Made by a program: the position numbers and the translations under genes. Shown one piece after another: positions 30,321 through 62,334 of a stretch of DNA of 64,000 nucleotides (position 1 is its first letter; the number at the start of each line of letters is the position of its first letter). The stretch is from Candidatus Acidiferrales bacterium. GTDB taxonomy: Bacteria > Acidobacteriota > Terriglobia > Acidiferrales > UBA7541. The stretch is from assembly GCA_050746805.1 (NCBI GenBank), contig JBOGMW010000102.1, forward strand, positions 287-64,286. Reading direction: 5' to 3'. The notes beneath the pieces are model-generated. The model did no database searches. It was not told the origin of the DNA and worked only from the letters and a program-made list of their open reading frames with translations.

Positions 30321-30329
30321 CTCGCGAAT

Positions 30330-38172: not shown

Positions 38173-38440
38173 GCCAGGGGAATGGTGCACGTAATGCAAA
38201 GTTGACGCCAGGCCATCGCCGGGGCCGTCGCTGCCAGAAACCGGAACTGCGGCGCTGCTCCTGCTACGAGTGCGGTGCGACCGTCGGGCCAGATGGTATG
38301 CGGCAAAGGGTGCCATGCGCGGCGGCTGTGGAGTCGGCAAAAAATGCCTCATGCTGCGCGGCGTGCGATTCGAGGACCTGCGAGCGGCTGCGGACGTTGC
38401 GGTGCAAGCAGTTGCGCCGGCGATGTGGAAAGTACGGCGA

Positions 38441-38456
38441 TGGCTCTGATCTTGCA
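38441..38456 (+). promoter_or_regulatory. sigma54-type promoter (-24/-12) for flgF operon
   Basis: TGGCTC-TGATC-TTGCA compared with the consensus TGGCAC-N5-TTGCA. The GC of the -12 element lies 28 nt upstream of the flgF ATG, leaving a leader that carries the GAGGGA SD. Confidence 0.55.
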
Positions 38457-38482
38457 CTGGAGAAGAGCCGAAGAGGGAAATT

Positions 38483-39220
38483 ATGGGTAGCGGATTTTAT
38501 GCGGCTTACACGGGACTGGCGGCGCGGATGAGCGAGCTGGACGTGGTAGCGAACAATTTGGCGAACGTGTCGACCACCGGGTATCGCGGGCAGAACGAAT
38601 TTTACAACGCGGTAACGGCGAGCCAGGAGCCGCAGGCGATGAGTCCATTGAATGTGGCGATTAATGATTATGGCGTGCTGGGCGGAACCAGCATCGATTT
38701 CGCGCAGGGAAATTTGCAGCAGACGGGGAACAACCTCGACTTGGCGATCAAAGGGCCGGGGTTTTTCGCGGTGCGGACCGCGGGCGGAGTGCGATACACG
38801 CGCGATGGCGCGTTTCATGTGAGCGCGGCGGGCGAGATCGTGAACGAGCAGGGCGACGCGGTGTTGAACCCGAAAAATCTGCCGATTCAAGTGCCGCTCG
38901 GGACGGTAACGATCGCGCAGGACGGCACGGTCTCGGTGGACGGCGCGATTGCCGGGCAGGTGCAGGTGTCGGAGTTTGCATCGGACGCGCAACTGGAGCC
39001 GGAAGGCGACACGAATTTTATTGCGCCGTCGGGCGCGGCTCAGCCGGCGAAGAACTCGACGGTGGCTTCGGGGATGCTGGAGTCGTCGAATCTGAATGCG
39101 ATTCAGGAGACGGTGTCGCTGCTGGTGCTGCAACGTCATGCGGACATGATGGAGAAGGCGCTGTCGATTTTTCTGGACGATTTCAATCGCACGGCGGTGC
39201 AGGAATTGGCAGTGGATTGA
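38483..39220 (+). CDS. flgF: flagellar basal-body rod protein FlgF
   Basis: MGSGFYAAYTGLAARMSELDVVANNLANVSTTGYRGQ ... MLESSNLNAIQETVSLLVLQRHADMMEKAL. Confidence 0.9.
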   Translation: MGSGFYAAYTGLAARMSELDVVANNLANVSTTGYRGQNEFYNAVTASQEPQAMSPLNVAINDYGVLGGTSIDFAQGNLQQTGNNLDLAIKGPGFFAVRTAGGVRYTRDGAFHVSAAGEIVNEQGDAVLNPKNLPIQVPLGTVTIAQDGTVSVDGAIAGQVQVSEFASDAQLEPEGDTNFIAPSGAAQPAKNSTVASGMLESSNLNAIQETVSLLVLQRHADMMEKALSIFLDDFNRTAVQELAVD

Positions 39221-39415
39221 CGCGCGGGTGAAACGGCGCGACACGAGGCGCGCTGCGGCGCGCACTCATGTCGCAGCTAAAAGCTGCGACCCACAAAGGA
39301 TCTCGAAGCGCCGTAATGGAACCGAATGGGAAGTGGGCCGCGCCGGGCGCAAAGATGTTCGTGATCAGAGGCAATTCTAAAGGCTGCGAGCGAGAATTTT
39401 GCAAGGGGGCTGAAC

Positions 39416-40207
39416 ATGTTTCGTTCTTTGTACACGGCGGCGAGCGGGATGGAAGCGCAGGAGATGAATCTCGATAACATCGCCAACAACTTGTCGAACG
39501 CCAATAGCACAGGATTTCGCAGGCGGCGGCTGGATTTCGAGGACTTGATTTACCAGAACATGGTGACGCCGGGCGCTCCGAACACGCAACAGACGGTGAT
39601 ACCGGCGGGATTGCAGGTGGGACTAGGGTCGCGCCCAGTAGCTACGGAGGTGATTCAGCAGCAAGGCAATTTCGATTCGACGGGCAATCCGCTCGACTTG
39701 GCAATTCAGGGCGCGGGATATTTTCAAGTACTGCTGCCGAGCGGAGAAATCGCGTACACGCGCGCGGGGAATTTTACCGTCGATAACGTGGGGAATTTGG
39801 TGACGCAGGATGGAAATCCGGTGCAGCCGGCGATCACTATTCCGCCGGACGCATTGACGGTGACGGTGGGAAACGACGGCACGGTGAGCGTGACGGAGCC
39901 GGGACAACAGCAGCCCGCGCAGGTGGGATCGATTCAACTAGCGACGTTTCAAAATCCGGGCGGGCTGAACAGCATGGGTGCGAATTTGTTTGAGACGACG
40001 GGCGCGTCGGGCGATCCAATCGTGGGAACGCCGGGCGGTGCGGAGGGCCTTGGTACGGTGCAGCAGGGAATGCTGGAAGAGTCGAACGTGGACGTGGTGA
40101 CGGAGTTCGTAAATATGATTGTGGCGCAAAGGTCGTATGAGGCGAGCTCGCAGGTGATCAAGGCGGCCAATGAGATGTTTCAGACGGTGAACAATCTGGA
40201 GACGTAG
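39416..40207 (+). CDS. flgG: flagellar distal rod protein FlgG
   Basis: MFRSLYTAASGMEAQEMNLDNIANNLSNANSTGFRRRRLDFEDLIYQ ... MLEESNVDVVTEFVNMIVAQRSYEASSQVIKAANEMFQ. Confidence 0.95.
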   Translation: MFRSLYTAASGMEAQEMNLDNIANNLSNANSTGFRRRRLDFEDLIYQNMVTPGAPNTQQTVIPAGLQVGLGSRPVATEVIQQQGNFDSTGNPLDLAIQGAGYFQVLLPSGEIAYTRAGNFTVDNVGNLVTQDGNPVQPAITIPPDALTVTVGNDGTVSVTEPGQQQPAQVGSIQLATFQNPGGLNSMGANLFETTGASGDPIVGTPGGAEGLGTVQQGMLEESNVDVVTEFVNMIVAQRSYEASSQVIKAANEMFQTVNNLET

Positions 40208-40983
40208 TGACGGGATACGCGGAGTGGAGCATGAGTATCGATCCGAAGAAAGTTTGGCGCGGACGGCGACGAGCGGCGGGAAACCCGGCGCGGATCGCGG
40301 CGTTGGCTATGCTGGCCGCATGGGGGCTGGCTGCGGCGGGCGCCGCGGTGGCGCGAAGCGACGAGTCGAGGACGCGACGCGTGACGCGCGAGGAAGTGGT
40401 GGCGGCGATCGAGCGGACACTGCGTGCGAATTGGTCCGCGTCGGGCGAAGGGCAGGGGGCTGGCGAGGCGCTGTCAGTGGACGACGTGCAGCTGGCGGCG
40501 GAAGTGGACGTTACGGAAAGCGCACCGCAATTGCAAGTGGCGCAGATTCAGGCGGCACCGGACGGGGCGACGACCCGAGTTCTCGTGTGGGTGACGTCGG
40601 AGCCGCGCGTGCCGCCGTTTTGGGTGCGAGTCGATCGCAGAATCGAAATCGGCGACGTGAGCAGACGGCGCGAGTTGATCGGGGGCGTCGAAGCTCCGAT
40701 GCGAGTGGCGACCGCGCCCGCTGCACGGATAGCGATTGTGCCGGTAAGTGCACGCATGAAGCGGTCGGGTGCGGGCCGCGGCGATGCACTGGGCGCTGTG
40801 CTAGTGAAGAGCGGTGATCCGGTGGAATTGGTGGTGCGAGTTGGCGGCATGAGGATTCAGGGAACGGGGATTCCTCTGGAGCGCGGCAGGAGAGGCGACG
40901 AGGTACGGGTGCGCGCGGCACCGTCTGGGAAAGTTTTGGTGGGCACGGTGGTGGGCGAGCAGATCGTGCAGGTGAGTTTCTGA
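40207..40983 (+). CDS. flgA: P-ring assembly chaperone FlgA
   Basis: C-terminus VLVKSGDPVELVVRVGGMRIQGTGIPLERGRRGDEVRVRAAPSGKVLVGTVVGEQIVQV. Position before flgH. Confidence 0.8.
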   Translation: MTGYAEWSMSIDPKKVWRGRRRAAGNPARIAALAMLAAWGLAAAGAAVARSDESRTRRVTREEVVAAIERTLRANWSASGEGQGAGEALSVDDVQLAAEVDVTESAPQLQVAQIQAAPDGATTRVLVWVTSEPRVPPFWVRVDRRIEIGDVSRRRELIGGVEAPMRVATAPAARIAIVPVSARMKRSGAGRGDALGAVLVKSGDPVELVVRVGGMRIQGTGIPLERGRRGDEVRVRAAPSGKVLVGTVVGEQIVQVSF

Positions 40984-40994
40984 GGAGATTTTCG

Positions 40995-41723
40995 GTGACG
41001 CATGTGACGGGCAAATGGGCAGTGAAGTTGCGAGCGACGGCGTTGGGATGCGCCGCGGCGCTGATGTTACTGAGCGCGGAAAGCGCGACCGCGAAAGGCA
41101 AAAACAAACCGGCGAAACCAGACACGATAAACGCGTATATCGCGCAGTTTCCGCCGGAGCGAGCGTATGTGGCGACCACCGGAAGCTTATGGAATCCGAC
41201 GGGGCGGTTGAGCGATGTAGCGAGCGATGCCAAAGCGCGTTACGCGGGAGATCAGATGACGATTCAACTGGTGGAATCGACCACGTCGGCGCTGCAGGGA
41301 AGCGTGCAGACGTCGCGCTCGCTCGCGGCATCGTCGAGCATCGGAGCGTTTTTCGGCAAGGTGGCCGGCGGATCGGCCGCGCAGAACATTTTCTCGCCCA
41401 ATTCATCACAGGCGCTGGCGGGCAAGGGGCAGACAGCGCTGGCAACGTCCCTCGATACCACGCTGGCGGCGAATGTCACGCAGGTGCTGCCGAACGGACT
41501 GCTGGTGATCGAGGCTCGGCGGCAAGTGGAAGTGAGCCAGCAGCGGCAGACCATGGTGCTGCGCGGAATTGTGCGTCCGCAGGATATCTCGCCAAACGAT
41601 GTGGTGCTTTCGACGTCGATCAGCCATTTGGAAGTGACGCTGGACGGCAAGGGCGTGCTGACGGAATCGACGCGGCAGCCAGGGCTGATCGTACGCACGC
41701 TGCTGCACTTCTTTAGTTTCTGA
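40995..41723 (+). CDS. flgH: flagellar L-ring protein FlgH
   Basis: SLWNPTGRLSDVASDAKARYAGDQMTIQLVESTTS...VLPNGLLVIEARRQVEVSQQRQTMVLRGIVRPQDISPNDVVLSTSISHLEV. Confidence 0.9.
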   Translation: MTHVTGKWAVKLRATALGCAAALMLLSAESATAKGKNKPAKPDTINAYIAQFPPERAYVATTGSLWNPTGRLSDVASDAKARYAGDQMTIQLVESTTSALQGSVQTSRSLAASSSIGAFFGKVAGGSAAQNIFSPNSSQALAGKGQTALATSLDTTLAANVTQVLPNGLLVIEARRQVEVSQQRQTMVLRGIVRPQDISPNDVVLSTSISHLEVTLDGKGVLTESTRQPGLIVRTLLHFFSF

Positions 41724-41731
41724 CGAGGCGA

Positions 41732-42916
41732 ATGATGGCGGAGACGCGAAGCGAGAGCTGGATGCGGAGAGGGGCGGCGGAGAATCAGCCGCGCGTGATT
41801 GCGCTGGTTTGCGTTTGCGCGGCTGCTTTGATCTTCGGCGCGGGAGCGCGGGCAGATCAGAGGAAAGTGGAAGGGCGGCCCGTTCGGCTGCGCGATATCA
41901 CGACGGTCGAAGGCGTGCGCGACAATCCGCTGATCGGCTACGGCTTGGTGGTGGGATTGAAGCGCACGGGCGACAGCCAGCAGACGATTTTTTCGACGCA
42001 AACGCTGGCAAATATTTTGCAGCGGATGGGATTGCAGATCCCGGTTTCGTCGGTGCAGATACGCAACGTGGCGGCGGTGTTCGTGACGGCGACGCTGCCG
42101 CCGTTCGCGGAGCCGGGGATGCGGATTGACGTGACGGTTTCGTCGATCGGCGATGCCAAGAGTATCGAGGGCGGAATTTTACTGATGACGCCGTTGCACG
42201 CGAGCAATGGCGACGTTTACGCGGAAGCGCAAGGCGCCCTGACAATCGCGGGATACACGGCGGGCGGGCACGGCACGACGGCCACCGTGAATCAGCCGAC
42301 GGTGGGGCGGGTTCCCAACGGAGCGATTGTGGAGCGCGACGTGGCCGTGGATTTATCAAGCATGAAGACGATTTCGTTGTTGCTGCGGCAGCCGGATTTC
42401 AAAGTGGCGAACGAAACCGCGGAAGCAATCGCCAAAGTGATGGGGCAGGGCGTGGCGCGAGCCGTGGACGGAAGCCGAATTGAAATCAATCCCACGGGAA
42501 TCGCGCCGGAGGGAATTCCCGGCTTGCTGGCGAAGATCGGCGATTTGACGGTAGACGTGCCTCCAGTGGCGAAAGTGGTGATCAACGAGCGGACTGGAAC
42601 CGTAGTGCTGGGGCGCGACGTGAGCTTGGGCGCGTGCTCGATTTTGCAAGGAAGCTTGGCGGTGGACATCACAACGACTTTCAACGTGTCGCAGCCAGCA
42701 CCGTTTTCTCAGAATGGACAAACGACCGTGACGCCCCAGACGAACGTCCAGGCCAAGGAACAACCGGCGCAGGCGGTGCAGTTGCAGGAGGGTGCAACGG
42801 TGGAGGACCTGGTGCGCGGGCTGCAGGCCATCGGCGCCACGTCGCGAGACATCGTGGCAATCTTGCAGGCGATCAAGGCAGCGGGTGCGCTGCAGGCCGA
42901 CTTGGAGGTGATTTGA
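41732..42916 (+). CDS. flgI: flagellar P-ring protein FlgI
   Basis: RLRDITTVEGVRDNPLIGYGLVVGLKRTGDSQQTIFSTQTLANILQRMG...VINERTGTVVLG. Confidence 0.95.
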   Translation: MMAETRSESWMRRGAAENQPRVIALVCVCAAALIFGAGARADQRKVEGRPVRLRDITTVEGVRDNPLIGYGLVVGLKRTGDSQQTIFSTQTLANILQRMGLQIPVSSVQIRNVAAVFVTATLPPFAEPGMRIDVTVSSIGDAKSIEGGILLMTPLHASNGDVYAEAQGALTIAGYTAGGHGTTATVNQPTVGRVPNGAIVERDVAVDLSSMKTISLLLRQPDFKVANETAEAIAKVMGQGVARAVDGSRIEINPTGIAPEGIPGLLAKIGDLTVDVPPVAKVVINERTGTVVLGRDVSLGACSILQGSLAVDITTTFNVSQPAPFSQNGQTTVTPQTNVQAKEQPAQAVQLQEGATVEDLVRGLQAIGATSRDIVAILQAIKAAGALQADLEVI

Positions 42917-43350
42917 TGAGTGTTGGAGGCGCGGCGTGCGCGGGCCTGGCGCAGATGAGCGGCGAGGCGGAGGGCGCGGCAGCATGGGCGAAGGGCGGCG
43001 CGAAGTCCGCTGGAAATGCTGTGAGGAGTATGGACAGCAAGAGGCAACAGGCCGAAATGCTGAAGCTAAAAAAGGCAGCAACGCAGTTCGAGGCTATGCT
43101 GCTGGAGAAATGGTGGTCCTCCATGAAGGAGAGCGGGCTGAGCGAAGACGACAGCAGCGATCCGGGGCAGGGCACGCTGGACAACATGGGAATGCAGGCC
43201 ATGTCCACTGCGGTTGCGGGCGCGGGAGGCATCGGAATCGCGTCCATGTTGGTGCATAGCTTGCAGGGGGAGATAGCGAGCGAAAGCGCCCAAGCGACAG
43301 CGGTTGCAAGCGTCGCAAAAGCACCAGTGGCGAGCATTAAATCGAATTAG
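42916..43350 (+). CDS. flgJ: rod-binding protein (FlgJ N-terminal-type, no muramidase domain)
   Basis: KKAATQFEAMLLEKWWSSMKESG matches the Rod_binding core. 144 aa. TGATG junction with flgI. Confidence 0.7.
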   Translation: MSVGGAACAGLAQMSGEAEGAAAWAKGGAKSAGNAVRSMDSKRQQAEMLKLKKAATQFEAMLLEKWWSSMKESGLSEDDSSDPGQGTLDNMGMQAMSTAVAGAGGIGIASMLVHSLQGEIASESAQATAVASVAKAPVASIKSN

Positions 43351-43402
43351 CGTAGTGAGTTGCGGAGCGTATCGAGTTGAGCGAGAGCCAAGCGCGAATC
43401 GA

Positions 43403-43429
43403 TGAAGATAAGCAAAGTTTCGCCGATTT
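43403..43429 (+). promoter_or_regulatory. sigma28-like promoter (weaker, distal) upstream of flgM
   Basis: TGAA-N15-GCCGATTT. Confidence 0.4.
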
Positions 43430-43460
43430 GAGTAATTGAGGGCAAAGCGTCCGCGTGGAT

Positions 43461-43487
43461 TAAAGGTTTCTTAATCGCGGCCGATTA
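43461..43487 (+). promoter_or_regulatory. sigma28-type promoter upstream of flgM
   Basis: TAAAG-N14-GCCGATTA, the same architecture as the fliC promoter. It lies 32 nt upstream of the flgM GTG. Confidence 0.65.
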
Positions 43488-43518
43488 AGAGCACAGATCG
43501 AACAGTAATTCTGGAGGC

Positions 43519-43848
43519 GTGCAAGTGAGGATCGATCCAAACTTGGGAGCGTCACAAGCCCAGGGAACGGAACGGGCGGCGAGCCCGGAGAATACGGCGG
43601 CGCCTTCGTCGGCGTCGAAGCCACTGCGAATTTCGAACCAGGATAGCGGCGATCAGGCGAACCTCTCCGCGGATGCGCAGCAGCTATCGAATTTGAGCCA
43701 GGCACTGAACGACGTGCCGCAGGTCCGGCAGGAGCGCGTTGCGCCACTGAGCAAGGCGGTGCAGAGCGGCACGTACGCGGCGCAGAACCAGCAGATCGCG
43801 CAATCGATGCTGCGCGATTTCCGGATGACGAGTTCGTCGAGCCAATAA
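43519..43848 (+). CDS. flgM: anti-sigma28 factor FlgM
   Basis: 109 aa. DQANLSADAQQLSNLSQALNDVPQVRQERVAPLSKAVQSGTYAAQNQQIAQSML. Confidence 0.85.
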   Translation: MQVRIDPNLGASQAQGTERAASPENTAAPSSASKPLRISNQDSGDQANLSADAQQLSNLSQALNDVPQVRQERVAPLSKAVQSGTYAAQNQQIAQSMLRDFRMTSSSSQ

Positions 43849-43879
43849 CATTGGGGCATTAACGCCTGGAGCGAGCGGT

Positions 43880-44065
43880 ATGGCGGAACCGACGTCGCGG
43901 ATTGAGCCGGCAACTTCGTATAACGAGCCAGAGTCCAACGTGGCTTCGCGGCGTGGCCGCGAAAAGCGGCGTCCTAAGGCGAAGTCGCCGGATGACTTGG
44001 CGGAACTCACTGCAGCGGACGATGTGGACGAGCAAGAAAAACATTCTCTGGATACCCTGGCATGA
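43880..44065 (+). CDS. 61-aa charged hypothetical protein between flgM and flgN
   Basis: MAEPTSRIEPATSYNEPESNVASRRGREKRRPKAKSPDDLAELTAADDVDEQEKHSLDTLA. Its stop overlaps the next start (ATGA). Confidence 0.4.
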   Translation: MAEPTSRIEPATSYNEPESNVASRRGREKRRPKAKSPDDLAELTAADDVDEQEKHSLDTLA

Positions 44066-44562
44066 GCGCTGTAGTCGAAACCGCACAACTCGCAGAAGCC
44101 ATCGAGGCGCAATCACGCCTGATGCGCAAGCTTGCAAACGAGATGGAAGAATCGCGCACCGCGTACATTGCCATGAACCTGGAAGCGATCTACGGGCACG
44201 TGACGGCGCAAACGGAACTTTGCGAACGCTTGAGCGAAGCCGATCGTGCGCGCGCCGCAGCTTCGCAGGCGTTGCGTGCGGCTCTACCGGCGGAACTTTG
44301 GACTGAAGGAAACGCTCTGCCAGACGACTTGAACCGCTGGTTTGCCACCATCGATCCAGCCTCGGCCGAGAGGCTGCGCCACGCGATTACGGATATGGCG
44401 CTGGCCGAAGGACAGGCGCGGCATTTGCATCGAGCGCACGCGGTGATGCTGGAGGGATCGCGGCGCACTATCCAAATGCTAGCCAACGCGCTGACGACCT
44501 TCTCTCCATTTTACTCTGCGCCACAGGGCGGGACACCTGCCGTGGAGGCGAGGCAGGCATGA
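44062..44562 (+). CDS. flgN: FlgN-like export chaperone
   Basis: 166-aa helical protein. Conserved position between flgM and flgK. LAEAIEAQSRLMRKLANEMEESRTAYIAMNLEAIYGHVTAQTELCERL. ATGA overlap with flgK. Confidence 0.55.
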   Translation: MSAVVETAQLAEAIEAQSRLMRKLANEMEESRTAYIAMNLEAIYGHVTAQTELCERLSEADRARAAASQALRAALPAELWTEGNALPDDLNRWFATIDPASAERLRHAITDMALAEGQARHLHRAHAVMLEGSRRTIQMLANALTTFSPFYSAPQGGTPAVEARQA

Positions 44563-45935
44563 GCCTGAGTTCCAGCCTGCTGATCGCGGTGCAGTCCATG
44601 CTCACCGATCAGGGCGCGATGAACGTGGTAAGCAACAACATCTCCAACGTGAACACTCCGGGATACACGCGGGAAGTGGCCAACCTGGTGGAAAACCCGC
44701 CGGCAATGTACGGCGGACTGCCGTTTGGCACCGGAGTGGACCTGCAGAGCGTACAGAGCGTGCGCGATAACGTGCTGCAGTTGCGGTTGAATCAGGAAAC
44801 GCAGAATCAAGGCAAGTTCGACACGCTGTCCATGGGGCTGAACCAGATTCAGACGCTCTTCAACGAGCCGGCAGGATCGGGATTGCAGAGCTTGATCAGC
44901 CAGTTCTTCAACAGTTTTCAGCAGCTTTCGGCCGATCCAACGAATTCCGGGCTGCGGCAGAGCGTGATCAGCTCAGCGCAGGCGCTGGCGGCTGGTTTTA
45001 ATCAGACGGCGTCCGCGCTCGTGACGCAACAGCAGGATGCGGACCAGGCGGTGGTGCAAACCGCGCAGCAGATCAATCAGCTCACTTCACAAATCGCCAA
45101 GCTGAATGGACAAATTTCCGCCACTTCCGGAGGCGGGCAGGACGCTAATACGTTCATCGACCAGCGCGGGCAACTGATCAACCAGCTTTCGCAACTCGTG
45201 GATGTGCAGTCGATCACGGCGGACGGCGGAAGCCTGACGCTGACGACCACTGGCGGTGCGGCGCTGGTGGTGGGCAACCAGAGTTTTAACTTGCAGACGG
45301 AGACCAATTTATCGACCGGCTTTCACGATGTTTACGCGCAGGGCGCGGACATCACCAGCTCGATCCAGTCGGGCGATCTTGCGGCAGATATTCAACTGCG
45401 CGACCAGGAAATCCCGTCGATTGTGAGTAACCTGGACACGCTGGCGAATGGAATTGCCACGTCCGCGAACACTCAAAACGCGGCAGGCTTCGATTTGAAT
45501 GGCAATCCCGGCGCTAATATCTTCGTGCCGCCGACGGGTGTGGCAGGCTCGGCTTTGAATCTAGCCGTCACCATTACCGATCCGAACACGATCGGAGCCA
45601 GTTCCGACGGGACACCCGGCGACAACGCGAATGCGACGGCGCTGGCGAATCTGCAAAACCAGAACATCGTCAGCGGGCAGACGCCGATCGATTTTTATTC
45701 CGGTATCGTGTTTCAGGTGGGCAGCGATGCGTCCAATGCCTCGAGCCAGCTTTCCGGAGAGAAACTGCTGGTGCAGCAATTGCAAGATCAAGTGAACGCG
45801 GTTTCCGGCGTGTCGCTGGACGAAGAAGCCGCCAACCTGGTGCAATTCCAGAACGCTTACAACGCATCTGCGCGCGTGGCATCGATCGTGGCTAGTCTGT
45901 TTCAGACGGCGATTAACATGACGGGTAGCTCATGA
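44559..45935 (+). CDS. flgK: hook-associated protein 1 FlgK
   Basis: MSLSSSLLIAVQSMLTDQGAMNVVSNNISNVNTPGYTRE ... VSLDEEAANLVQFQNAYNASARVASIV. Confidence 0.95.
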   Translation: MSLSSSLLIAVQSMLTDQGAMNVVSNNISNVNTPGYTREVANLVENPPAMYGGLPFGTGVDLQSVQSVRDNVLQLRLNQETQNQGKFDTLSMGLNQIQTLFNEPAGSGLQSLISQFFNSFQQLSADPTNSGLRQSVISSAQALAAGFNQTASALVTQQQDADQAVVQTAQQINQLTSQIAKLNGQISATSGGGQDANTFIDQRGQLINQLSQLVDVQSITADGGSLTLTTTGGAALVVGNQSFNLQTETNLSTGFHDVYAQGADITSSIQSGDLAADIQLRDQEIPSIVSNLDTLANGIATSANTQNAAGFDLNGNPGANIFVPPTGVAGSALNLAVTITDPNTIGASSDGTPGDNANATALANLQNQNIVSGQTPIDFYSGIVFQVGSDASNASSQLSGEKLLVQQLQDQVNAVSGVSLDEEAANLVQFQNAYNASARVASIVASLFQTAINMTGSS

Positions 45936-46828
45936 GCGCTCGCGTAGATCCAAATATTCTTCCGGACCTGCTTTCCGGACTCAACGAGATGCGGCAGCAA
46001 CTGAACGCGGCTGACGCGGAGCTGGCGTCCGGCAGAAGCATCAACGAACCCTCGGACAATCCAGCGGGTACGGCGGCGCTGGTGTTGAATCACGCACAGC
46101 AGAGCCAGACGGATACGTTTCAGCAGAACATTACCGACCTGCAATCGAAGATGCAGATCGCGGATTCAGCGCTCAGTTCCGCGGAGACGGCGATTCAACA
46201 GGCGATTTCGGTTGGCGTGGAAGCGGGAAATTCGACGCTATCAGATCAGGATCGCCAGGCGATCGCGCAGCAGCTCTCTGGAATTCAGCAGCAGCTAGTG
46301 GGAATCGCGAATTCGACGGCCGGAGGCACATACCTTTTCGGCGGGACGCTGGTGACCACACAACCGTTTACACCCAATGCAGCCGATCCCTCGGGTGTGA
46401 CGTACAGCGGGAATAGCTCGGTGCTGTCGGTGGAGATCGCGAACGGGCAAAGCGTGACGACAAGTGTTCCAGGCAACCAGCTGTTCCTTAATCCGGCAGG
46501 CAGCGTCTTGGGCGCGATCAATCAACTGATCGCTGCGGTTCAGTCCAACTCCGGAATTGCGGCGGCGAACACGGCGCTGGGACAGGCAGCCAGCGAATTC
46601 AGCACCGAGCGTCTGGTGTACGGAACGTCACTCAATCAGTTGCAATCCACCGAAACGTTTTTGGCCAACGATCGGGTGCAGCTGCAAACGCAGGAAAGCA
46701 ATATCGCCGGAGCGGACCTGGCACAGGTCACCACGAATTTCAGCCAGGCAGACGTTGCGTACCAGTCGCTGCTGCAGGCCGAAGGAAAAATTCTCAGCCT
46801 GCCAACCCTTCTCGATTACCTGCAGTAG
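45932..46828 (+). CDS. flgL: hook-associated protein 3 FlgL
   Basis: 298 aa. LASGRSINEPSDNPAGTAALV ... GADLAQVTTNFSQADVAYQSLLQAEGKILSLPTLLDYL. Confidence 0.9.
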   Translation: MSARVDPNILPDLLSGLNEMRQQLNAADAELASGRSINEPSDNPAGTAALVLNHAQQSQTDTFQQNITDLQSKMQIADSALSSAETAIQQAISVGVEAGNSTLSDQDRQAIAQQLSGIQQQLVGIANSTAGGTYLFGGTLVTTQPFTPNAADPSGVTYSGNSSVLSVEIANGQSVTTSVPGNQLFLNPAGSVLGAINQLIAAVQSNSGIAAANTALGQAASEFSTERLVYGTSLNQLQSTETFLANDRVQLQTQESNIAGADLAQVTTNFSQADVAYQSLLQAEGKILSLPTLLDYLQ

Positions 46829-46899
46829 CCTGCCGCACCGATTGTTTCTCTACGATGGATAGCCGTGAATGGGCCGCAAGGTTCGTCGGGCTAAATCTC

Positions 46900-46932
46900 A
46901 AAAAAGCACGCCCCACAGATGAGCCTGGGGTG
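46900..46932 (-). terminator. intrinsic terminator of the minus-strand fliC-fliD-fliS operon
   Basis: Minus-strand RNA CACCCCA-GGCUCAUCUG-UGGGGCG then UGCUUUUUU. It lies 35 nt after the stop at 46967. Confidence 0.65.
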
Positions 46933-46966
46933 TCGGAACCGCGGTTCGAGCACGCCGGCAACGAAC

Positions 46967-47320
46967 CTATCCGATGTGACGGGCGAGGCTGGCCCAGGCG
47001 CCGACGGCGCCGGCCCGCGCGCGGGCGTTGGCTAATTGCGTGCTACGGACGCGCAGAGCGGCCTCCACATCGACGAGCTTGGCGCGCAGCGCGCGTAGCG
47101 TGTCGGTGTAGGAGGCGATATGAGTCCGCCATTCCTGTCCGGAGAGGGTTTCGCGCGGCGCGGACTGAACGGCGCGGTCGACATCGCGCAGGATTTGAGA
47201 CATTTCTTCGATAGCGCGGGAGCGCTGGTTCACTGGATCGGGAGAATTGGAGAGGACCCTGAGGCAAACGCGAAGATCGCGGTTGGCCTGTTGGATCGTC
47301 TCGATCGGCGCGGCGGACAT
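46967..47320 (-). CDS. hypothetical helical protein in the FliT position
   Basis: 117 aa. Its start overlaps the fliS stop (TGATG). No family recognised from sequence. Confidence 0.5.
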   Translation of the reverse strand: MSAAPIETIQQANRDLRVCLRVLSNSPDPVNQRSRAIEEMSQILRDVDRAVQSAPRETLSGQEWRTHIASYTDTLRALRAKLVDVEAALRVRSTQLANARARAGAVGAWASLARHIG

Positions 47321-47781
47321 CAGCGCGACGCCCGCACGCGACGAGATTCATTGCCGCGCAGCACCGGAGGAGGCACGGGGCCGGCCATTACCGGTTCCGG
47401 CTCTTCCTGCTTGCTGAGTTCGCGATCGACCTCCTGCCACCCTTCGGCAACGCCGGAAAATTCAGCGGCCAAAGCTTCCAGTATTTGAGCGGCGTTGGGG
47501 CCGCTGCATTCGAGGATTTTGACGCGTGATGAGTTATAGAAATCGGAGAGGCTGCGCGCCACTTGCCCACCTTTCTCAAAATTGAGAACAGATTGGAGGT
47601 GGCCGATTACCACGATAGCGTGGCTTAATTCGCGAGTGCGGCGTTCGATCTGGTTGCGCTGCACGGCGTCGAGAGCCCGGCGCAGGCTGCGAATCACTTC
47701 TTCGTACAAGATGACGATCAGACCGACTGGGCTTGCGCCTCCGACAGCCAGTTCGCGGTACGCGCGAGCGGGATCTCTCAT
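47320..47781 (-). CDS. fliS: flagellin chaperone FliS
   Basis: GASPVGLIVILYEEVIRSLRRALDAVQRNQIERRTRELSHAIVVIGHLQSVLNFEKGGQVARSLSDFY. Confidence 0.9.
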   Translation of the reverse strand: MRDPARAYRELAVGGASPVGLIVILYEEVIRSLRRALDAVQRNQIERRTRELSHAIVVIGHLQSVLNFEKGGQVARSLSDFYNSSRVKILECSGPNAAQILEALAAEFSGVAEGWQEVDRELSKQEEPEPVMAGPVPPPVLRGNESRRVRASR

Positions 47782-47803
47782 TTTTGTCCTTTACCCTCTT
47801 CCT

Positions 47804-49174
47804 TTAACCGAGCGACTGCAATTGCTGGGATATTTGCTGCAACAAAAGCGGAAGCTCCTGCAGGGTGGTATCTACCTGCACGTATTGCTGCGTTAGTTGC
47901 TGCTGCATGGTATTGAGCTGGTCCTGAAAATCGGAAATTTGCTGCGTGATGCTGGTTTGCGTTTGCGACAAGCCATTCATGTCCTGCGCGAGCGAGCCGG
48001 TGATGGGATCGGCGATGCCAGAGGCGATGCTCGACAGGTTGGCGCCGAAGCTACCGGATGTGGCCGATTGAAAGAACGATTGCACGGCGGTCGCGTTGCT
48101 CTGCAGCGCGCTTGAAAGGGCGGAGCTATTCACGGTTAAAGTACCGTCATTGTTCATGCTAATGCCGAGATCGGCGAGACTTTGCACCGCACCGTTGCCG
48201 GACATAGCGAAGGACGCCGCGGAAAGTATCTGGTTCTGGGCCAGTGCCAGGGTGCTGTCCGAGGCGAGCGGTCCGGACGAGTTGGTGGTGGGATCGACGG
48301 CGAACTGCTGGTTGAGGTCGCCCATCACGGTGTTGTAGGCGCTGACGAAACTGTTTACGGCAGCTTCCTGCTGGGTCACATCTGGCCCGGTGGTCAACGT
48401 GACTGAGGAATTTGGATTCGCGCCAGTGAGATTCAGAGTGACGCCGGACAAGGCGCCGGTGACCACGTTGCTGGCGCTCGAAATTGGGATGCCGTCAACG
48501 GTAAGCGAGGCGTTCGTGCCCGCAGCGGTGGTGAACGTGGGCAAGCCGCTAGACGGGGTGATGGTAAGGTTGCCGGGCTGGCCGCTGGTGTTGCTCACGA
48601 TTGCGAGGCGCGCTCCGTTGGCATCTGTGATGACGCTGGCGGTGACGCCGATGTTCGCCGTGTTGTTGATGGCATCGGCCAAGCCGGCGAGCGTGTTGTT
48701 GGTGTCGTCGATGGTGACGGTGGTCGGAGTGCCGGAGCCAACTTGGATGCTCAGAGTGCCGGTGGCGAGTGGAGTGGAGCTCGAGGCCACTGCAGTCGAA
48801 TAGCCTGACGAAGTGGTGGCGAGATTCGACACGGTGATCGTGTGCGTCCCGGATGGAGTGCCCGACACGGCGGTAGCCGAAAGGATTGAAGAATCGGATG
48901 ACGTGGCCGCGATAGCCGTCATTTGCCCGACGGGGTCGGTGAGGGCGTAGACAGCGTTCTGGAGCGTCTGAAAGTCGTTGTTAAAGCTGGTGAGCGCCGA
49001 TTGCTCGCTGGTGATCTGCGTTTGCTGACTCTGCATCACGGTCAGTTCGGCGGTTTGATTGGCCATGGCCGCGCTGACGAGTTGGCTTACGTCGATTCCG
49101 GCGCCAAGGCCGCCGCTGCTGGAGTTCGATTGCGAGCCGCCGAGAATGGACCCGCCGATGCTGGTGCTACTCAC
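47804..49174 (-). CDS. fliD: flagellar filament cap protein FliD
   Basis: 456 aa. GAGIDVSQLVSAAMANQTAELTVMQSQQTQITSEQSALTSFNNDFQTLQ ... QQLTQQYVQVDTTLQEL. Confidence 0.9.
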   Translation of the reverse strand: MSSTSIGGSILGGSQSNSSSGGLGAGIDVSQLVSAAMANQTAELTVMQSQQTQITSEQSALTSFNNDFQTLQNAVYALTDPVGQMTAIAATSSDSSILSATAVSGTPSGTHTITVSNLATTSSGYSTAVASSSTPLATGTLSIQVGSGTPTTVTIDDTNNTLAGLADAINNTANIGVTASVITDANGARLAIVSNTSGQPGNLTITPSSGLPTFTTAAGTNASLTVDGIPISSASNVVTGALSGVTLNLTGANPNSSVTLTTGPDVTQQEAAVNSFVSAYNTVMGDLNQQFAVDPTTNSSGPLASDSTLALAQNQILSAASFAMSGNGAVQSLADLGISMNNDGTLTVNSSALSSALQSNATAVQSFFQSATSGSFGANLSSIASGIADPITGSLAQDMNGLSQTQTSITQQISDFQDQLNTMQQQLTQQYVQVDTTLQELPLLLQQISQQLQSLG

Positions 49175-49288
49175 GGAAGCCTCCTTGCGACGCGCACACC
49201 AGACGTGGCGGAAGGTGCGCCGGCCGCGATCGAAAGCCGTTCAATCGTATTTTCCTCGATGGCCATTTTTTTGCGAAGAAGCCCGAAA

Positions 49289-49311
49289 GGCGGGCCCGAA
49301 GTGAGCCCGCC
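49289..49311 (-). terminator. terminator/attenuator-like hairpin after fliC
   Basis: Minus-strand RNA GGCGGGC-UCACUUCGG-GCCCGCC followed by UUUCGGGCUUCUU. Confidence 0.45.
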
Positions 49312-49329
49312 CTCCAGAACCTGTCAGGT

Positions 49330-50178
49330 CTAGTGAAGCAAATTGAGAACCTGCTGTTGCGCTGTGTTGGCTTGCGCCAGAGCCGAAATACCTGTCTGTT
49401 CAAGGATCGAGTATTTCGAAAGGTTGGCGACAACAGTGGGAATATCCGCGGCGGTGATTTGATCTTCCGCGGAGGTGAGGTTCTGTACTTCATTGTTCAT
49501 CACGTTGCTGGCCGCTTGCAAACGGTTGATGCCGGCTCCAATGGTGCCGCGGTCAGCGGCGACGGTGGCGATGGCGGTATTCACCAATTGCAGCGTTGCT
49601 TCCGGATCGGTTGCTCCGCCCGCTCCAGGAGTGCCGGTGAGAGTGGTGCTGTCAAGACCAAGGGCCGTGGTCGATAGACCGCTGATCTTGACGCCGATCG
49701 TAGTTGTGCCAGACGCGGTCGAGTCGCTGAGGAAAATCGAGCTCGTCGTGTTGGCCGTGGATGCGAAGATCGTCGCGCCGTTGAATGTGGTGTTCGTGCC
49801 GATGTTGTTGATTTCGTCCAGAATCTGTTGATATTCGGCGTCCAGCGCGGTGCGTTGACCGCTGGAAACCGTGCCGGTGGACGCTTCGGTGCCCAGCGTG
49901 ACTGCGCGGTTCAAAAGTGTGGTGACCTGGCCGAGCGCGCCGTCGGCAACCTGCAGAGCCCCGACGCCGTCGTTCGCATTGGCCACCGATTGCGTCAACG
50001 CCGTAACGTTGGCTTGCAAACCGTTGGCAATGGCAAGCCCAGCCGCATCATCGGCGCCGCTATTAATGCGCGACCCGGATGACAGCTGGGTGAGAGTGTT
50101 TTGTAAGTCCGATTGCGTGACGCTTAACTGGTTCTGAGCGATCAGCGAAGGGATGTTGTTCAGTACGCTTAATGCCAT
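49330..50178 (-). CDS. fliC: flagellin (short, 282 aa)
   Basis: MALSVLNNIPSLIAQNQLSVTQSDLQNTLTQLSSGSRINSGADDAAGLAIANGL ... LSKYSILEQTGISALAQANTAQQQVLNLL. Confidence 0.95.
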   Translation of the reverse strand: MALSVLNNIPSLIAQNQLSVTQSDLQNTLTQLSSGSRINSGADDAAGLAIANGLQANVTALTQSVANANDGVGALQVADGALGQVTTLLNRAVTLGTEASTGTVSSGQRTALDAEYQQILDEINNIGTNTTFNGATIFASTANTTSSIFLSDSTASGTTTIGVKISGLSTTALGLDSTTLTGTPGAGGATDPEATLQLVNTAIATVAADRGTIGAGINRLQAASNVMNNEVQNLTSAEDQITAADIPTVVANLSKYSILEQTGISALAQANTAQQQVLNLLH

Positions 50179-56904: not shown

Positions 56905-57831
56905 CTAGTTGCGGACGTTTTGTGCGATGGGTTGAGTTGGCGGGGCCGATGCCGCCCGGATCTGTTCCACAATCTGCCGCGCGAGTTTTAAGCTCGTGGC
57001 ACAGGTTGGATCGGTGATGCGGCACTCGGCGATGGTCATCGCGCAGCCGCACGTACAGCGCTCTGAGTTCATGCGCTTCAAAGCCAATTTCTTCTGGGTC
57101 GGAGTCAGCCCTTTGAAATTCACTCCTGGCATGCTGGTGGCCAGCGCGGCGTTTTTCAGAAAGATTTGACCGGTGTCCTTGAACGTTTCAATCTTCGCGT
57201 GCACGGGCATTCCGAGCAATGCGCGAATTTCATTGTCGTACACTTCCTTCGGATACAGGCCAACGTGCTTTTGCACCACGCGGCCTTCCGGATCGACCAC
57301 GAACGAAGTGGGTAGCGCGGGGATTCCGCCGTACTCTTCCGATAGCGCGTCGCTGCCCATGACGATGGGATAATTCATGCCGATTTTGTCGGCGAAGTCC
57401 TTCACGCCTTGCGCCGGGCCGTCGTCCATCGATACGCCAACAATCTGCAGCTTTCCCTGGAACTCTTTCTGCAGCTCCATCATTTCCGGAATTTCTTCCT
57501 GGCAGGGAGGGCACCATGTGGCCCAGAAATTCACGATCACTACTTTTCCGCGCAGTTGCGCGGTTGAGACAAGCTGCCCGTTGAGGTCATTGACCAAGAA
57601 CGGAGGCATCGGCCCCGCGTTGGTGGCGAAGCGGATCACTTCGGAGTCGCCAGAATCGTCCGCATTAGTTTTCGCGCTGGCCGGCTGCGGCTTCGCAGCA
57701 ACGGCGTGCGCCGTACTGGCAGCGCCCGGCTTAGCTGCAGAGACGTGCAGTTCGCGCGCGCCTTCGATGGCGATGGCTATAGCCCCCAGAGCGCAGGCAA
57801 CCAGCAGAATGATGAGTGCCGACTTCTTCAT
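56905..57831 (-). CDS. TlpA/ResA-like thiol:disulfide oxidoreductase with Cys-rich C-terminal extension
   Basis: Signal anchor MKKSALIILLVACALGAIAIA. VVIVNFWATWCPPCQEEIPEMMELQKEF. C-terminus RCTCGCAMTIAECRITDPTC. Confidence 0.85.
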   Translation of the reverse strand: MKKSALIILLVACALGAIAIAIEGARELHVSAAKPGAASTAHAVAAKPQPASAKTNADDSGDSEVIRFATNAGPMPPFLVNDLNGQLVSTAQLRGKVVIVNFWATWCPPCQEEIPEMMELQKEFQGKLQIVGVSMDDGPAQGVKDFADKIGMNYPIVMGSDALSEEYGGIPALPTSFVVDPEGRVVQKHVGLYPKEVYDNEIRALLGMPVHAKIETFKDTGQIFLKNAALATSMPGVNFKGLTPTQKKLALKRMNSERCTCGCAMTIAECRITDPTCATSLKLARQIVEQIRAASAPPTQPIAQNVRN

Positions 57832-59831: not shown

Positions 59832-59973
59832 GGAGAATGGGGGAGCTTTCTTCCACTTTCGATTTTGACGGAAATTTCTAGCCGTTCAGATGATAAGATT
59901 ACATCGAAATTGGCCCGGTGTGGACCAGAGCCTTCTTGGAGGTATTCTGCGTGACACGGGCCAGTGGTAATGT

Positions 59974-61068
59974 ATGCGATCAAGGATAGCGATGGCCAAC
60001 GAAGTGCCGAACGACCTGGCCGAAAAAGCAGCGATCATGCGGGAATTTGGACGGCTGCGCGCCGCAGGGCAGCCAATTCCGGCGGAGTTACAAGCGAAGC
60101 ACGTCAACGCTACCAACGACGGCTACACCACCGGCCCTGAGCCTGCAGAGCGAATCCCCGATTTCTCGTTGGCCGACCAAAACGGAATGTCCAGGTCGCT
60201 CGTAAATCTCGCCGGGGCCAACGGATTGCTTTTGGTGTTCTATCGCAGCGCGGATTGGTGACGCTACTGCCGCTCCCAACTCGTCGAGTTGGAACAATCA
60301 CGCACGATAATCGAAAAGGAAGGCTTTCGCATCGCGGCCGTCAGTTACGATTCGCAGGAAAAACTTCGCAATTTCGGGCAGCAATACCAGATTGGCTTTC
60401 CGCTGCTTTCCGATGCTGGCAGCGCCGTGATTCGCAGCTTCGGAATCTTGAACACCAATATCGCGCCCGAGCTGCGGGCGCACGGTGTTCCGCATCCCGT
60501 GCAGTATCTGGTCGCGCCGGACGGCATCGTCATCCGCAAGTATTTCGTGCCCAATTACCAGCATCGCGTCGCGGGATCTGCCGTTGCTCTGCAAGAATTC
60601 GGGGCCACGAGCCACCTCGCACCAGCGGTCACTTTGCATAGTGGCGCATTGACGGTGCACCTGGGTCTATCGACAGAGCAAGCTTTCGCCGGCCATGAAA
60701 TCGGTTTCTTCGCCAAATTCGCGCTTGAACCGGGCTGGCACGTCTACGGCGCACCGCTGCCGGAGAACTACACCGTAACGTCCGTGACGTTCGATGACCC
60801 CAGCATCATTCGCCAGTCGTTTGAATTGCCGCCGCCCGTTCCGCTGCGAATCGCGGCGCTTGGGGAAACGCTGCCGGTTTACAGCGGTTCGTTCCAAGGA
60901 TCGGGTTCGCTCTTACTGAAATATCCGCTCGACGAGGGCAGGATCACACTCTCAGGCCGCGTCCGCTTCCAACAATGCAGCGACACCGTCTGCGAGCCGC
61001 CTGAAACTCTCCCGTTCGACCTTCCGCTGACTCTTCAACCATTCCAGATCGCGCCGCAGCGCAAATAG
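59974..61068 (+). CDS. AhpC/TSA-type (peroxiredoxin-like) protein with in-frame UGA at the first Cys of the W-C-x-x-C motif, fused to a DsbD-alpha/DsbC-like C-terminal domain; candidate selenoprotein
   Basis: ORFs 59974..60261 and 60289..61068 share one frame, and the only stop between them is TGA 60259..60261. The read-through is ...IPDFSLADQNGMSRSLVNLAGANGLLLVFYRSADW-U-RYCRSQLVELEQSRTIIEKEGFRIAAVSYDSQEKLRNF... The C-terminus reads FALEPGWHVYGAPLP...GRVRFQQCSDTVCEPPETL. Confidence 0.65.
60276..60292 (+). promoter_or_regulatory. SECIS-like stem-loop downstream of UGA 60259..60261
   Basis: CCAACUC-GUC-GAGUUGG forms a perfect 7-bp stem with a GUC apical loop. It starts 14 nt after the UGA. Confidence 0.45.
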
Positions 61069-61182
61069 TTCTGCCAGATCTTGTGCATGAGTGGGCCTTC
61101 CCACTTGTGTTATAAGCAACCAGAGCGCGACGCAATGCCATTCGCAGCGAGGCGGCAGCTGCATCTGGCGAACCGGAGGTAC

Positions 61183-62334
61183 ATGGCGATGGACAGACGA
61201 TCGTTTGTGAAGGCTGCGGCGCTTTCGTACGCCACGGCCTCCAGTTGGCTGACGGCCGCCGCGTCGCAAATCAAAATGCCGGTGAGCAACAAGGAGGCGT
61301 CTAAGCCCCGTAAGGTTCCCTACAAACGCATCGCTACCGAAGAAGCCTGGGGCACCGTGGAAATGTTCGACATGTACATTCAGCTGATCGACAAAAATCC
61401 GTACGCCCACCCCGGGCTTGCAAGCATGTGGGGAAGCACCGGCAATCGCGCCGGGGAATCAGAAGGCAGCGCCAATCCCATCGTCAGGCGGCTGGCGGAT
61501 ATGGGAGAAGGTCGAATCAGTGATATGGACGCCAGCGGAATCGACGTAGCACTACTTTTATTAACCGCGCCCGGCGTGCAGGTGTTCGACGCGGCGACAG
61601 CAAATTCGCTGGCGGCGTCGACGAACGATCAACTTGCGGAGGCGATCCGCAAATATCCCACTCGATTTGCCGGGCTAGCCGCCATTGCTCCACAAGATCC
61701 GAAAACGGCCGCGAAAGAATTCGAGCGGGCGACGAAAACCCTCGGCTTGAAAGGGGCGGTCATCAACTCGCATACCGAAGGCGAATACCTCGACGACCCG
61801 AAGTTCTGGGATATTTTCGAGGCTGCCGAGGCGTTGAATGCCCCCATTTACATTCATCCTCGGGAGCCCGGGCCGCAAATGCTGCAGCCGTTTTTGCGGC
61901 GGGGAATGGAGCGCGCTCTTTGGGGCTTCAACGTCGAGGTTAGCGTGCATACGCTCGGGCTGATCGCCGCTGGGGTTTTCGATCGTTTTCCGAATCTCAA
62001 GATCGTTATCGGACACGCCGGGGAAGGGCTTCCGTATATGCTGTATCGCATCGACTACTGGGAACAGCGCAAAAAACCATTCATGCCCAAACTGAAGATG
62101 CTGCCCAGCGACTATATGAGGCGGAATATCTTCATTACCACGAGTGGCATGCCGTGGGGACCAGCTATACAGCTCGCGCAATCCGTGCTGGGCGTGGATC
62201 GTGTGCTATATGCGATGGATTACCCATACGAATTCGAAATCGAAGAAGTCACGATGACCGACGATATCTCCATGAGCGACGCGGATAAAAAGAAATTCTT
62301 TCAGACTAACGCGGAAAAGGTCTTTTCGCTCTAA
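61183..62334 (+). CDS. amidohydrolase-2 (ACMSD-like) family protein with Tat-type signal
   Basis: MAMDRRSFVKAAALSYATASSWL. KIVIGHAGEGLPYMLYRIDY. DRVLYAMDYPYEF. GGAGG SD. The start is ATG 61183 or 61189. Confidence 0.85.
   Translation: MAMDRRSFVKAAALSYATASSWLTAAASQIKMPVSNKEASKPRKVPYKRIATEEAWGTVEMFDMYIQLIDKNPYAHPGLASMWGSTGNRAGESEGSANPIVRRLADMGEGRISDMDASGIDVALLLLTAPGVQVFDAATANSLAASTNDQLAEAIRKYPTRFAGLAAIAPQDPKTAAKEFERATKTLGLKGAVINSHTEGEYLDDPKFWDIFEAAEALNAPIYIHPREPGPQMLQPFLRRGMERALWGFNVEVSVHTLGLIAAGVFDRFPNLKIVIGHAGEGLPYMLYRIDYWEQRKKPFMPKLKMLPSDYMRRNIFITTSGMPWGPAIQLAQSVLGVDRVLYAMDYPYEFEIEEVTMTDDISMSDADKKKFFQTNAEKVFSL

Follow-up and report, generated by a model that had tools for sequence, protein, structure and literature searches.

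A probable selenocysteine-containing redoxin fused to a DsbD-alpha-like domain, encoded across an in-frame UGA in Acidobacteriota

The most frequent bacterial selenoproteins are thioredoxin-fold proteins with a UxxC active site (U, selenocysteine, Sec) and a selenocysteine insertion sequence (SECIS) inside the coding region, and the listed families include a 'Prx-like thiol:disulfide oxidoreductase' (PF00578, UxxC; PMC13188914, PMC1794560) and a 'Redoxin family protein' (PF08534, UxxC). Acidobacteriota are among the documented users of Sec (PMC1794560 Table 2; PMC12013277 Table). Related in another way are DsbD and ScsB, whose alpha domains reduce redoxins of TlpA/CcmG type and feed a peroxiredoxin pathway (PMC3322552). 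Here we describe a locus in a 64-kb stretch of DNA from a Candidatus Acidiferrales bacterium (contig JBOGMW010000102.1, positions 287 to 64,286; called the window below, and the source of all coordinates unless another locus is named), at which an open reading frame (ORF) for a redoxin joined to a DsbD-alpha-like domain is interrupted by a single TGA at 60259. Selenocysteine is almost certainly what this TGA encodes, which makes the two ORFs on either side of it one 358-residue redox protein. To the fuller account, in which one selenoprotein gene with SECIS-directed Sec insertion encodes a two-centre oxidoreductase, we assign a probability of roughly 0.88.

With the Prx-like thiol:disulfide oxidoreductases the predicted protein shares an AhpC/TSA-type fold, Sec in place of the first Cys of a CxxC motif, a coding-region SECIS just after the UGA, and the existence of Cys homologues. 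It differs from them in its added DsbD-alpha-like domain with a second Cys pair and in its N-terminal helical extension, and it is concentrated in Acidobacteriota and not in Deltaproteobacteria; the likeness to the literature families (WP_010940744.1, HEU0032618.1) is one of listed domain (PF00578/PF08534) and UxxC motif only. As in DsbD and ScsB (1VRS, 6DPS, 6C29; PMC3322552), an Ig-fold (immunoglobulin-fold) module with a Cys pair accompanies a thioredoxin-fold module with C/UxxC, and in DsbD the Ig-fold alpha and thioredoxin-fold gamma domains exchange electrons directly. Unlike those proteins, however, the window protein has neither a transmembrane beta domain nor a signal peptide, its order is reversed (thioredoxin fold first), its thioredoxin-fold domain is of AhpC/TSA/ResA type and not of DsbD-gamma type, its Ig-fold cysteines are spaced C-x4-C, and its active site would contain Sec. 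ResA, TlpA and CcmG, the natural electron acceptors of DsbD/ScsB alpha domains, are alike in that their W-C-x-x-C aligns residue by residue, with Sec at the first Cys, and in fold (TM-scores 0.72-0.79, normalised to target length); NCBIfam scores are nevertheless far under the cut-offs (ResA 38 vs 170, TlpA 24 vs 230), and the window protein is by prediction soluble, without a membrane anchor, fused to an alpha-like domain and a user of Sec.

The NCBIfam Sec redoxins NF040769, NF041054, NF053656 and NF040737 likewise have a thioredoxin fold with Sec in or beside a CxxC-equivalent motif, and the TUGYCR motif of NF053656 resembles the W-U-(R/Q)-Y-C-R found here. None of these families is described with a DsbD_N fusion, and the window protein scores far below the cut-offs of the NCBIfam selenoprotein models (SelL-related 43.8/120, WAxxUGC 23.7/300, TUGYCR 16.7/100, PrxU 16.3/270). 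A redoxin-DsbD_N selenoprotein is not mentioned in Peng et al. 2016, in the deep-Sep paper or in the 2026 review. The DsbD-alpha fusion, and the pair of cytoplasmic and exported paralogues described below, therefore appear to be undescribed, while the decoding is standard and the type of active site familiar.

ORFs 59974..60261 and 60289..61068 lie in a common frame with TGA 60259..60261 as the sole interruption, and the translation over the junction reads LLLVFYRSADW*RYCRSQLVELEQ. On re-reading the sequence, this arrangement and the coordinates of the hairpin downstream proved to be as given in the preliminary description of the region, which had been drawn up from the sequence without database searches. 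The real start is probably ATG 59992, because an AAGGA stands 5 nt upstream of it and because the full-length homologues begin there, at the residue matching M7 of the 59974 ORF. From this ATG, Sec is residue 90 (96 from the alternative upstream ATG 59974). A linker of about 25 residues joins the redoxin domain to the Ig-fold domain. The features of the gene are as follows.

59992..61068, plus strand: predicted complete selenoprotein gene, 358 codons and a TAG stop, with TGA 60259 as the only break in the frame
59982..59986, plus strand: Shine-Dalgarno-like AAGGA, 5 nt before ATG 59992, read from the sequence; putative ribosome-binding site
59992..60138, plus strand: conserved N-terminal extension with two predicted helices (homologue alignment and AlphaFold 2 (AF2) model)
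60148..60534, plus strand: AhpC/TSA-type thioredoxin-fold (redoxin) domain (Pfam, PDB profile search, Foldseek)
60259..60261, plus strand: predicted Sec codon UGA, in the place of the first nucleophilic Cys of W-C-x-x-C (Cys homologues, related loci, ResA alignment)
60268..60270, plus strand: partner Cys codon TGC of U-x-x-C, present in every locus
60276..60292, plus strand: predicted bacterial SECIS-type hairpin, 7-bp stem, loop GUC at 60283..60285 (bacterial SECIS criteria, conservation, covariation)
60667..61011, plus strand: DsbD-alpha/ScsB-alpha-like Ig-fold domain (Pfam PF11412, AF2 model, Foldseek)
60976..60993, plus strand: Cys pair C-S-D-T-V-C, a putative second redox centre (TGC 60976..60978 and TGC 60991..60993, invariant)

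A homologue search over 5.8 billion proteins returned two classes. The first consists of full-length proteins of 331-377 aa with 54-67 % identity. The second, which makes up 98 of the best 120, consists of proteins of 243-262 aa with 68-80 % identity that correspond to the post-TGA part only and start with (M/L)EQSR. All 15 full-length homologues that were aligned are single unbroken ORFs with W-C-(R/Q)-Y-C-R at the position of the UGA, and such Cys-containing relatives measure 357-377 aa. The earlier proposal that the UGA sits on the first redox Cys thus agrees with 15 of 15 homologues, and the finding that it had named as its own refutation, orthologues in which the two halves are always separate genes, did not materialise. 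The short class is a gene-caller product of the Sec forms; its members carry public names such as 'hypothetical protein' and 'AhpC/TSA family/DsbC', and a 189-aa fragment at NCBI is called 'DsbD domain-containing protein'.

A scan for related loci, taking one genome per species, gave 70 loci, of which 69 contain the motif region. Nearly all come from metagenome-assembled genomes (MAGs) of Acidobacteriota, the nearest being Acidiferrales (81-83 % amino acid identity), followed by Bryobacterales and Terriglobia, and a few are from Binataceae. The codon at the Sec site is TGA in 65 of the 69, TGC in three and TGT in one, and the frame is open on both sides of the TGA in about 61 of the 65 Sec loci, the others being cut off by a contig end or, in three cases, broken by premature stops. 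Across the 65 Sec loci, the 85 residues upstream of the TGA show a median identity of 74 %, on par with the remainder of the protein. Besides the four genomic Cys forms, six more were recovered from metagenomes. In a neighbour-joining tree the Cys forms fall into at least two derived groups amid the Sec forms. The three Sec loci with premature stops or frameshifts after the TGA (L050, L066 and L067) have 132-211 codons there, against about 268; these breaks may be assembly errors or real decay.

If the TGA were a true stop, the locus would be a pseudogene or two genes, a 95-aa N-terminal fragment and a 259-aa protein starting at TTG 60289. Public gene callers give exactly such proteins, of 253-259 aa and with M/L-EQSR at their start, and TGA does serve as an ordinary stop in this genome. 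Against this stand a TGA that recurs at this very codon in 65 species, its flanks intact and equally conserved, Cys forms that are single ORFs, a 259-aa product that would start in the middle of a thioredoxin fold and lack the active site, and RNA-level selection on the hairpin only where the TGA is present. We therefore regard a true stop as extremely improbable, and on these sequence comparisons the pseudogene or two-gene reading is excluded for practical purposes; the preliminary argument that chance pseudogenisation does not explain the locus has been strengthened by a TGA kept in 65 of 69 loci between two equally conserved halves. A reassigned genetic code was also considered and ruled out, because TGA is the commonest ordinary stop in the window, where it ends 16 of the 38 ORFs of at least 250 aa.

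Downstream of the UGA, now taken as the Sec codon, lies a perfect 7-bp hairpin, CCAACTC-GTC-GAGTTGG (60276..60292), 14 nt past the TGA and within the coding sequence, where it encodes S-Q-L-V-E-L-E. The published model of the bacterial SECIS (bSECIS) has a loop of 3-9 nt with G in the first two loop positions and then G/U, a stem of 4-16 bp, a UGA-to-loop distance of 16-37 nt and a minimum free energy of at most -7.5 kcal/mol (PMC13188914, Fig. 2 legend). The hairpin agrees with it at every point (loop GUC, stem 7 bp, UGA-loop 21 nt, -9.1 kcal/mol), and most relatives have a GGUCG loop on a 6-bp stem. Folded over 31 nt, where it reaches this -9.1 kcal/mol, it has z = -2.9, and 3 of 200 shuffles do equally well.

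Several observations nonetheless count against the hairpin as a SECIS. A 60-nt fold does not outperform shuffled sequences (z = -0.01); a perfect bSECIS-fitting hairpin of at least 7 bp follows 16 of the 1677 TGA triplets in the window (1 %); among the cytoplasmic orthologues alone, covariation amounts to one pair with few independent events on the tree; and the hairpin, which also occurs in 4 of 10 Cys forms, coincides with a peptide whose conservation has reasons at the protein level. By itself the hairpin is weak evidence, and the case rests on comparative data.

These data concern synonymous choice and compensation. The 5-bp core is paired in 66 of 66 Sec forms, and pair 4, whose positions are both synonymous (CAA/CAG, TTG/CTG), is A-U in 47 of them, G-C in 17, G-U in 2 and never A-C. 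The Cys comparison set, four genomic forms plus six recovered from metagenomes with a Cys-specific degenerate pattern, encodes the same QLVELE peptide throughout, but the core survives in no more than 4 of these 10. The seven hairpin codons have a normalised synonymous-codon entropy of 0.39, compared with 0.73 for the remainder of the gene, and their synonymous diversity is the third lowest of 163 sliding windows across it. In the exported paralogues, the hairpin keeps both the register and the GGUCG loop on a different stem (G-C-A-G-C-U/A-G-C-U-G-C vs C-C-A-A-C-U/A-G-U-U-G-G). When orthologues and paralogues are aligned together, four of the seven pairs have changed on both sides, 93 % of the cells are paired against 10-41 % with a slid register, and the covariation score is reached by none of 500 shuffles. 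One compensation, seen in the exported paralogues and in the distant paralogue L070, ties a wobble base to a Glu-to-Gln change, and in L070 the closing pair is swapped from C-G to G-C.

It could be argued that the hairpin is a mere by-product of a near-palindrome in the conserved S-Q-L-V-E-L-E, and that the real SECIS is elsewhere or atypical. The peptide is indeed conserved in Cys forms too, four of which keep the full hairpin, and the unremarkable 60-nt fold would fit. But synonymous choice is constrained only in the Sec forms, as both the core counts and the entropy dip indicate; the compensatory changes include a wobble base coupled to the Glu-to-Gln replacement; and there is no alternative conserved stem 3' of the UGA, because the only other consensus helix found by RNAalifold (alignment columns 1-5 paired to 13-17) runs across the UGA. 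With a permissive threshold, Rfam gave two chance matches and no SECIS family in 59900..61100. We consider the by-product explanation very unlikely, and the comparative evidence identifies the hairpin as a predicted SECIS-type element under RNA-level selection. The earlier expectation that it would be conserved among Sec-containing orthologues has thus been borne out: it is conserved, covaries, and decays in Cys forms.

Genes for the machinery that would read this signal were not found in the window. A Pfam scan of 20 ORFs and tblastn with the SelA, SelB and SelD of a Bryobacterales MAG (L031) found no selA, selB or selD in the 64 kb, which are mostly a flagellar/regulatory cluster, and a tRNA scan of the same stretch found no tRNA. 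In L031 itself, genes for tRNA-Sec, SelB, SelA and a SelD-type protein are located directly upstream of the orthologue, and one of the two Sec redoxin-DsbD_N paralogues stands at each end of this complete cluster (1282..5969).

L031 1282..1377, minus strand: tRNA-Sec, anticodon TCA
L031 1430..3349: SelB
L031 3346..4833: SelA (Pfam SelA, 537 bits)
L031 4923..5969: SelD-type gene of the Cys type, divergent, with an HGGGCGCK motif that we take to be that of SelD

In another relative (L023), selD (1..1044) is directly upstream of the redoxin-DsbD_N gene. The Sec-decoding machinery, whose absence had been named as a possible refutation, is therefore present beside an orthologue and missing inside the window. 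This last fact is also what favours a further alternative, namely that read-through does occur at the UGA but inserts no Sec, being due to a near-cognate Trp or Cys tRNA or to hairpin-stimulated local recoding. That alternative must be set against a UGA that aligns exactly with the redox Cys, a hallmark of Sec/Cys pairs; a hairpin that fits the SelB-type bSECIS model (PMC13188914); the full sel cluster abutting the L031 orthologue; and the Sec use documented in Acidobacteriota (PMC1794560 Table 2; PMC12013277 Table). Non-Sec read-through is accordingly most improbable, and we suggest that in this organism SelB would bind the hairpin and Sec would be inserted at residue 90.

The window holds a second candidate selenoprotein gene (82..1887, minus strand), with a TGA at 1440..1438 in the context 'AIGH*STC'. 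Its N-terminal domain matches the UGSC family (seleno)protein model NF041046 with 83.6 bits, below the cut-off of 125, and this UGSC-like domain is fused to a C-terminal region of about 420 aa. The gene's hairpin, CAGCGACC-GUC-GGUCACUG, begins 13 nt past the TGA and is imperfect, with 3+4 bp and a C/A mismatch. Of the second UGA event put forward in the preliminary description, the TGA, the 13-nt spacing and the GUC loop hold, and the match between the two hairpins is less close than it had implied. In one related locus (L035), a homologue of this gene at 7289..8932 lies directly downstream of the redoxin-DsbD_N gene and keeps the TGA ('MAIGH*STC').

For domain assignment, the protein was scanned against Pfam with U read as C. 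Residues 59-187 match PF00578 AhpC-TSA with 89.4 bits (cut-off 26), PF08534 Redoxin scores 43.7 bits, and the active site reads W-U-R-Y-C. The full-length AF2 model has a mean predicted local distance difference test (pLDDT) score of 81 and a predicted template modelling (pTM) score of 0.73; Foldseek searches with it returned thioredoxin-fold matches only and no two-domain template. In the PDB profile search and in Foldseek with the AF2 model, the N-terminal domain matches BCP/PrxQ, AhpE and ResA. In the profile alignment, Sec aligns with the first Cys of ResA W-C-E-P-C, and its partner Cys takes the place of the second cysteine in the ResA CxxC and, in BCP, that of the peroxidatic Cys. The peroxiredoxin motif P-x-x-x-T/S-x-x-C was not found in the alignment with BCP: where BCP has 'FFP-AAFSPVC' the protein reads 'FHRSAEW(U/C)QYC', with Pro replaced by Arg and Thr/Ser by Sec/Cys. 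In the AF2 model, the U-x-x-C stands directly before helix 98-115. A site just before that helix is the nucleophilic CxxC position of the thioredoxin fold. The protein thus has a W-C-x-x-C site of ResA/TlpA type at the N-terminus of helix alpha-1, while the NCBIfam equivalog cut-offs are not reached. From these alignments and the model we read the site as a thioredoxin/ResA-type UxxC and not a canonical peroxiredoxin site. The domain and the W-C-x-x-C proposed in the preliminary description are confirmed, and its peroxiredoxin label is not, the site being ResA-like where PxxxTxxC would be expected.

The protein could still be a genuine selenoprotein and a peroxidase, in which Sec attacks peroxide (cf. 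GPx, Sec-Prx), the neighbouring Cys resolves the selenenic acid, and the DsbD-alpha-like dithiol re-reduces the selenenylsulfide. AhpC/TSA is its best Pfam match, the top PDB sequence and fold matches include the BCP/PrxQ and AhpE peroxiredoxins, and ScsB alpha domains feed a periplasmic peroxiredoxin pathway (PMC3322552). On the other hand, PxxxTxxC is missing, with Arg at the Pro position and Sec itself at the Thr position; ResA-type CxxC reductases match about equally well; and NCBIfam peroxiredoxin models are far under their cut-offs (e.g., PrxU 16 vs 270). Peroxidase function, the main functional rival, we hold to be unlikely. Since the redoxin domain has no canonical peroxiredoxin catalytic motif, 'thiol/selenol-disulfide oxidoreductase' fits better than 'peroxiredoxin', and by analogy with known systems the protein is most likely a two-centre selenol/thiol-disulfide oxidoreductase.

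The second centre would be in the C-terminal domain. Residues 232-346 match PF11412 DsbD_N with 34.2 bits (cut-off 25), and this domain modelled alone with AF2 has an all-beta Ig-like fold (pLDDT 92.5). Its top Foldseek matches are 6c29 (ScsB N-terminal domain), 1vrs_C (E. coli nDsbD with cDsbD) and 6dps (N. meningitidis nDsbD), with E values of 5e-5 to 5e-4; single-sequence and profile searches of the domain against PDB sequences found nothing, and only the fold search matched. The DsbD-alpha-type domain noticed earlier by eye is thus recovered by both the Pfam model and the fold. Its Cys pair, C-S-D-T-V-C with C-x4-C spacing (C329/C334 from ATG 59992, C335/C340 from 59974), is invariant in alignments A1, A3 and A4, the distant paralogue L070 included; with the U-x-x-C this makes four conserved redox residues.

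No signal peptide or hydrophobic N-terminal segment was found in the window protein or its orthologues, and nothing therefore marks them as periplasmic. The N-terminal extension is charged and helical (AF2 helices 13-30 and 37-48). As it has no export signal, the protein is probably cytoplasmic. An exported paralogue of the fusion exists, with about 30-35 % identity, a signal peptide where the extension sits, and a DsbD-like 'YQACDxxxCY(N/L)P'. It has TGA at the same site, and the Sec form is found in 5 of 5 such paralogues and in L070; signal peptides are seen in those of L026, L028, L031, L056 and L070.

L031 78..1226, minus strand: exported paralogue, on the far side of the sel cluster
L026, L028, L056 and L069, about 4807..5904, minus strand: exported paralogue, head-to-head with the cytoplasmic gene
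L070 6001..6972: exported paralogue

We propose the following mechanism. A ribosome reaching UGA 60259..60261 would meet, 14 nt on, a hairpin whose G-U-C loop begins 21 nt past the UGA; serving as a bacterial SECIS, the hairpin would recruit SelB with Sec-tRNA(Sec), and selenocysteine would be inserted without termination. The product would be a 358-aa protein with a W-U-R-Y-C thioredoxin-fold domain and an Ig-fold domain with C-x4-C, and reducing equivalents would pass between the Sec-Cys and Cys-Cys centres inside one polypeptide, with Sec speeding the thiol-disulfide exchange. The electron donor would presumably be the thioredoxin system. Such a relay is suggested because cDsbD-nDsbD (1VRS), and the DsbD/ScsB alpha domains that reduce TlpA/CcmG-type redoxins, act in this way.

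Besides the caveats on the hairpin and the lack of sel genes in the window, a few points weigh against this account. The relay is proposed by analogy only, the presence of Sec machinery in this particular genome is assumed, and a DsbD-alpha-like domain in a protein without an export signal is unusual. A conserved-neighbour analysis of the 70 loci found no recurrent partner gene save the exported paralogue, which recurs in one subgroup of the Bryobacterales. A neighbour 'cluster' of 28 loci turned up in the same analysis was rejected as an artefact of antisense ORFs.

Tentatively, and with more doubt than confidence, we raise the possibility that the paired Sec-redoxin/DsbD-alpha fusions, one without an export signal and one with a signal peptide, are an overlooked selenium-dependent redox system of Acidobacteriota and some Binataceae, often encoded head-to-head and sometimes beside the sel operon, in which each protein is a self-contained 'mini-DsbD' without a membrane domain and Sec is the majority and seemingly ancestral state. 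If so, the cytoplasmic fusion would place a DsbD-alpha fold in the cytoplasm. Early catalogues credited only a handful of selenoproteins to Acidobacteriota, to which this adds a conserved family with a clean, compact predicted SECIS. As gene callers split the protein, the active site of a widespread redox enzyme of soil bacteria is missing from the public gene calls examined, and its recognition would permit an annotation model to be built. The fusion also offers a simple soluble system in which to study how electrons move between a Sec centre in a thioredoxin fold and a Cys pair of DsbD-alpha type. Knowledge of Sec decoding itself is unchanged by the finding.

Outside Acidobacteriota, the family is represented by five loci (L057-L061) from Binataceae and from MAGs that bear the label 'Proteobacteria'; these are Sec forms in which the motif has the variant W-U-P-F-C-R-N, and their distribution suggests horizontal transfer or a wider spread of the family. 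Two MAGs, MFD04434.bin.1.11 (L022, L036) and MFD04463.bin.1.321 (L009, L051), each have two cytoplasmic-type Sec copies on separate contigs, so that the family is duplicated in some genomes.

In the window, an Amidohydrolase_2 gene (61081..62334, plus strand) begins 13 nt past the stop codon of the selenoprotein gene. It has no counterpart in the 70 related loci, in the closest of which TauD follows after about 0.9 kb, and it looks like a lineage-specific insertion. About 2 kb upstream, 56905..57831 (minus strand) encodes a TlpA/ResA-like redoxin, a secreted protein that carries a signal peptide, the sequence 'FWATWCPPC' and a C-terminal tail rich in Cys; this is a Cys protein of the ordinary kind and is kept in the closest relatives. 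Further away, a large cluster of flagellar/chemotaxis type occupies about 16000..50000 and includes, among others, the gene of a FliK-like hook-length protein (22568..24319), while a sigma-54 two-component system lies at 11105..15911; both fit the genome of a motile member of the Acidobacteriota.

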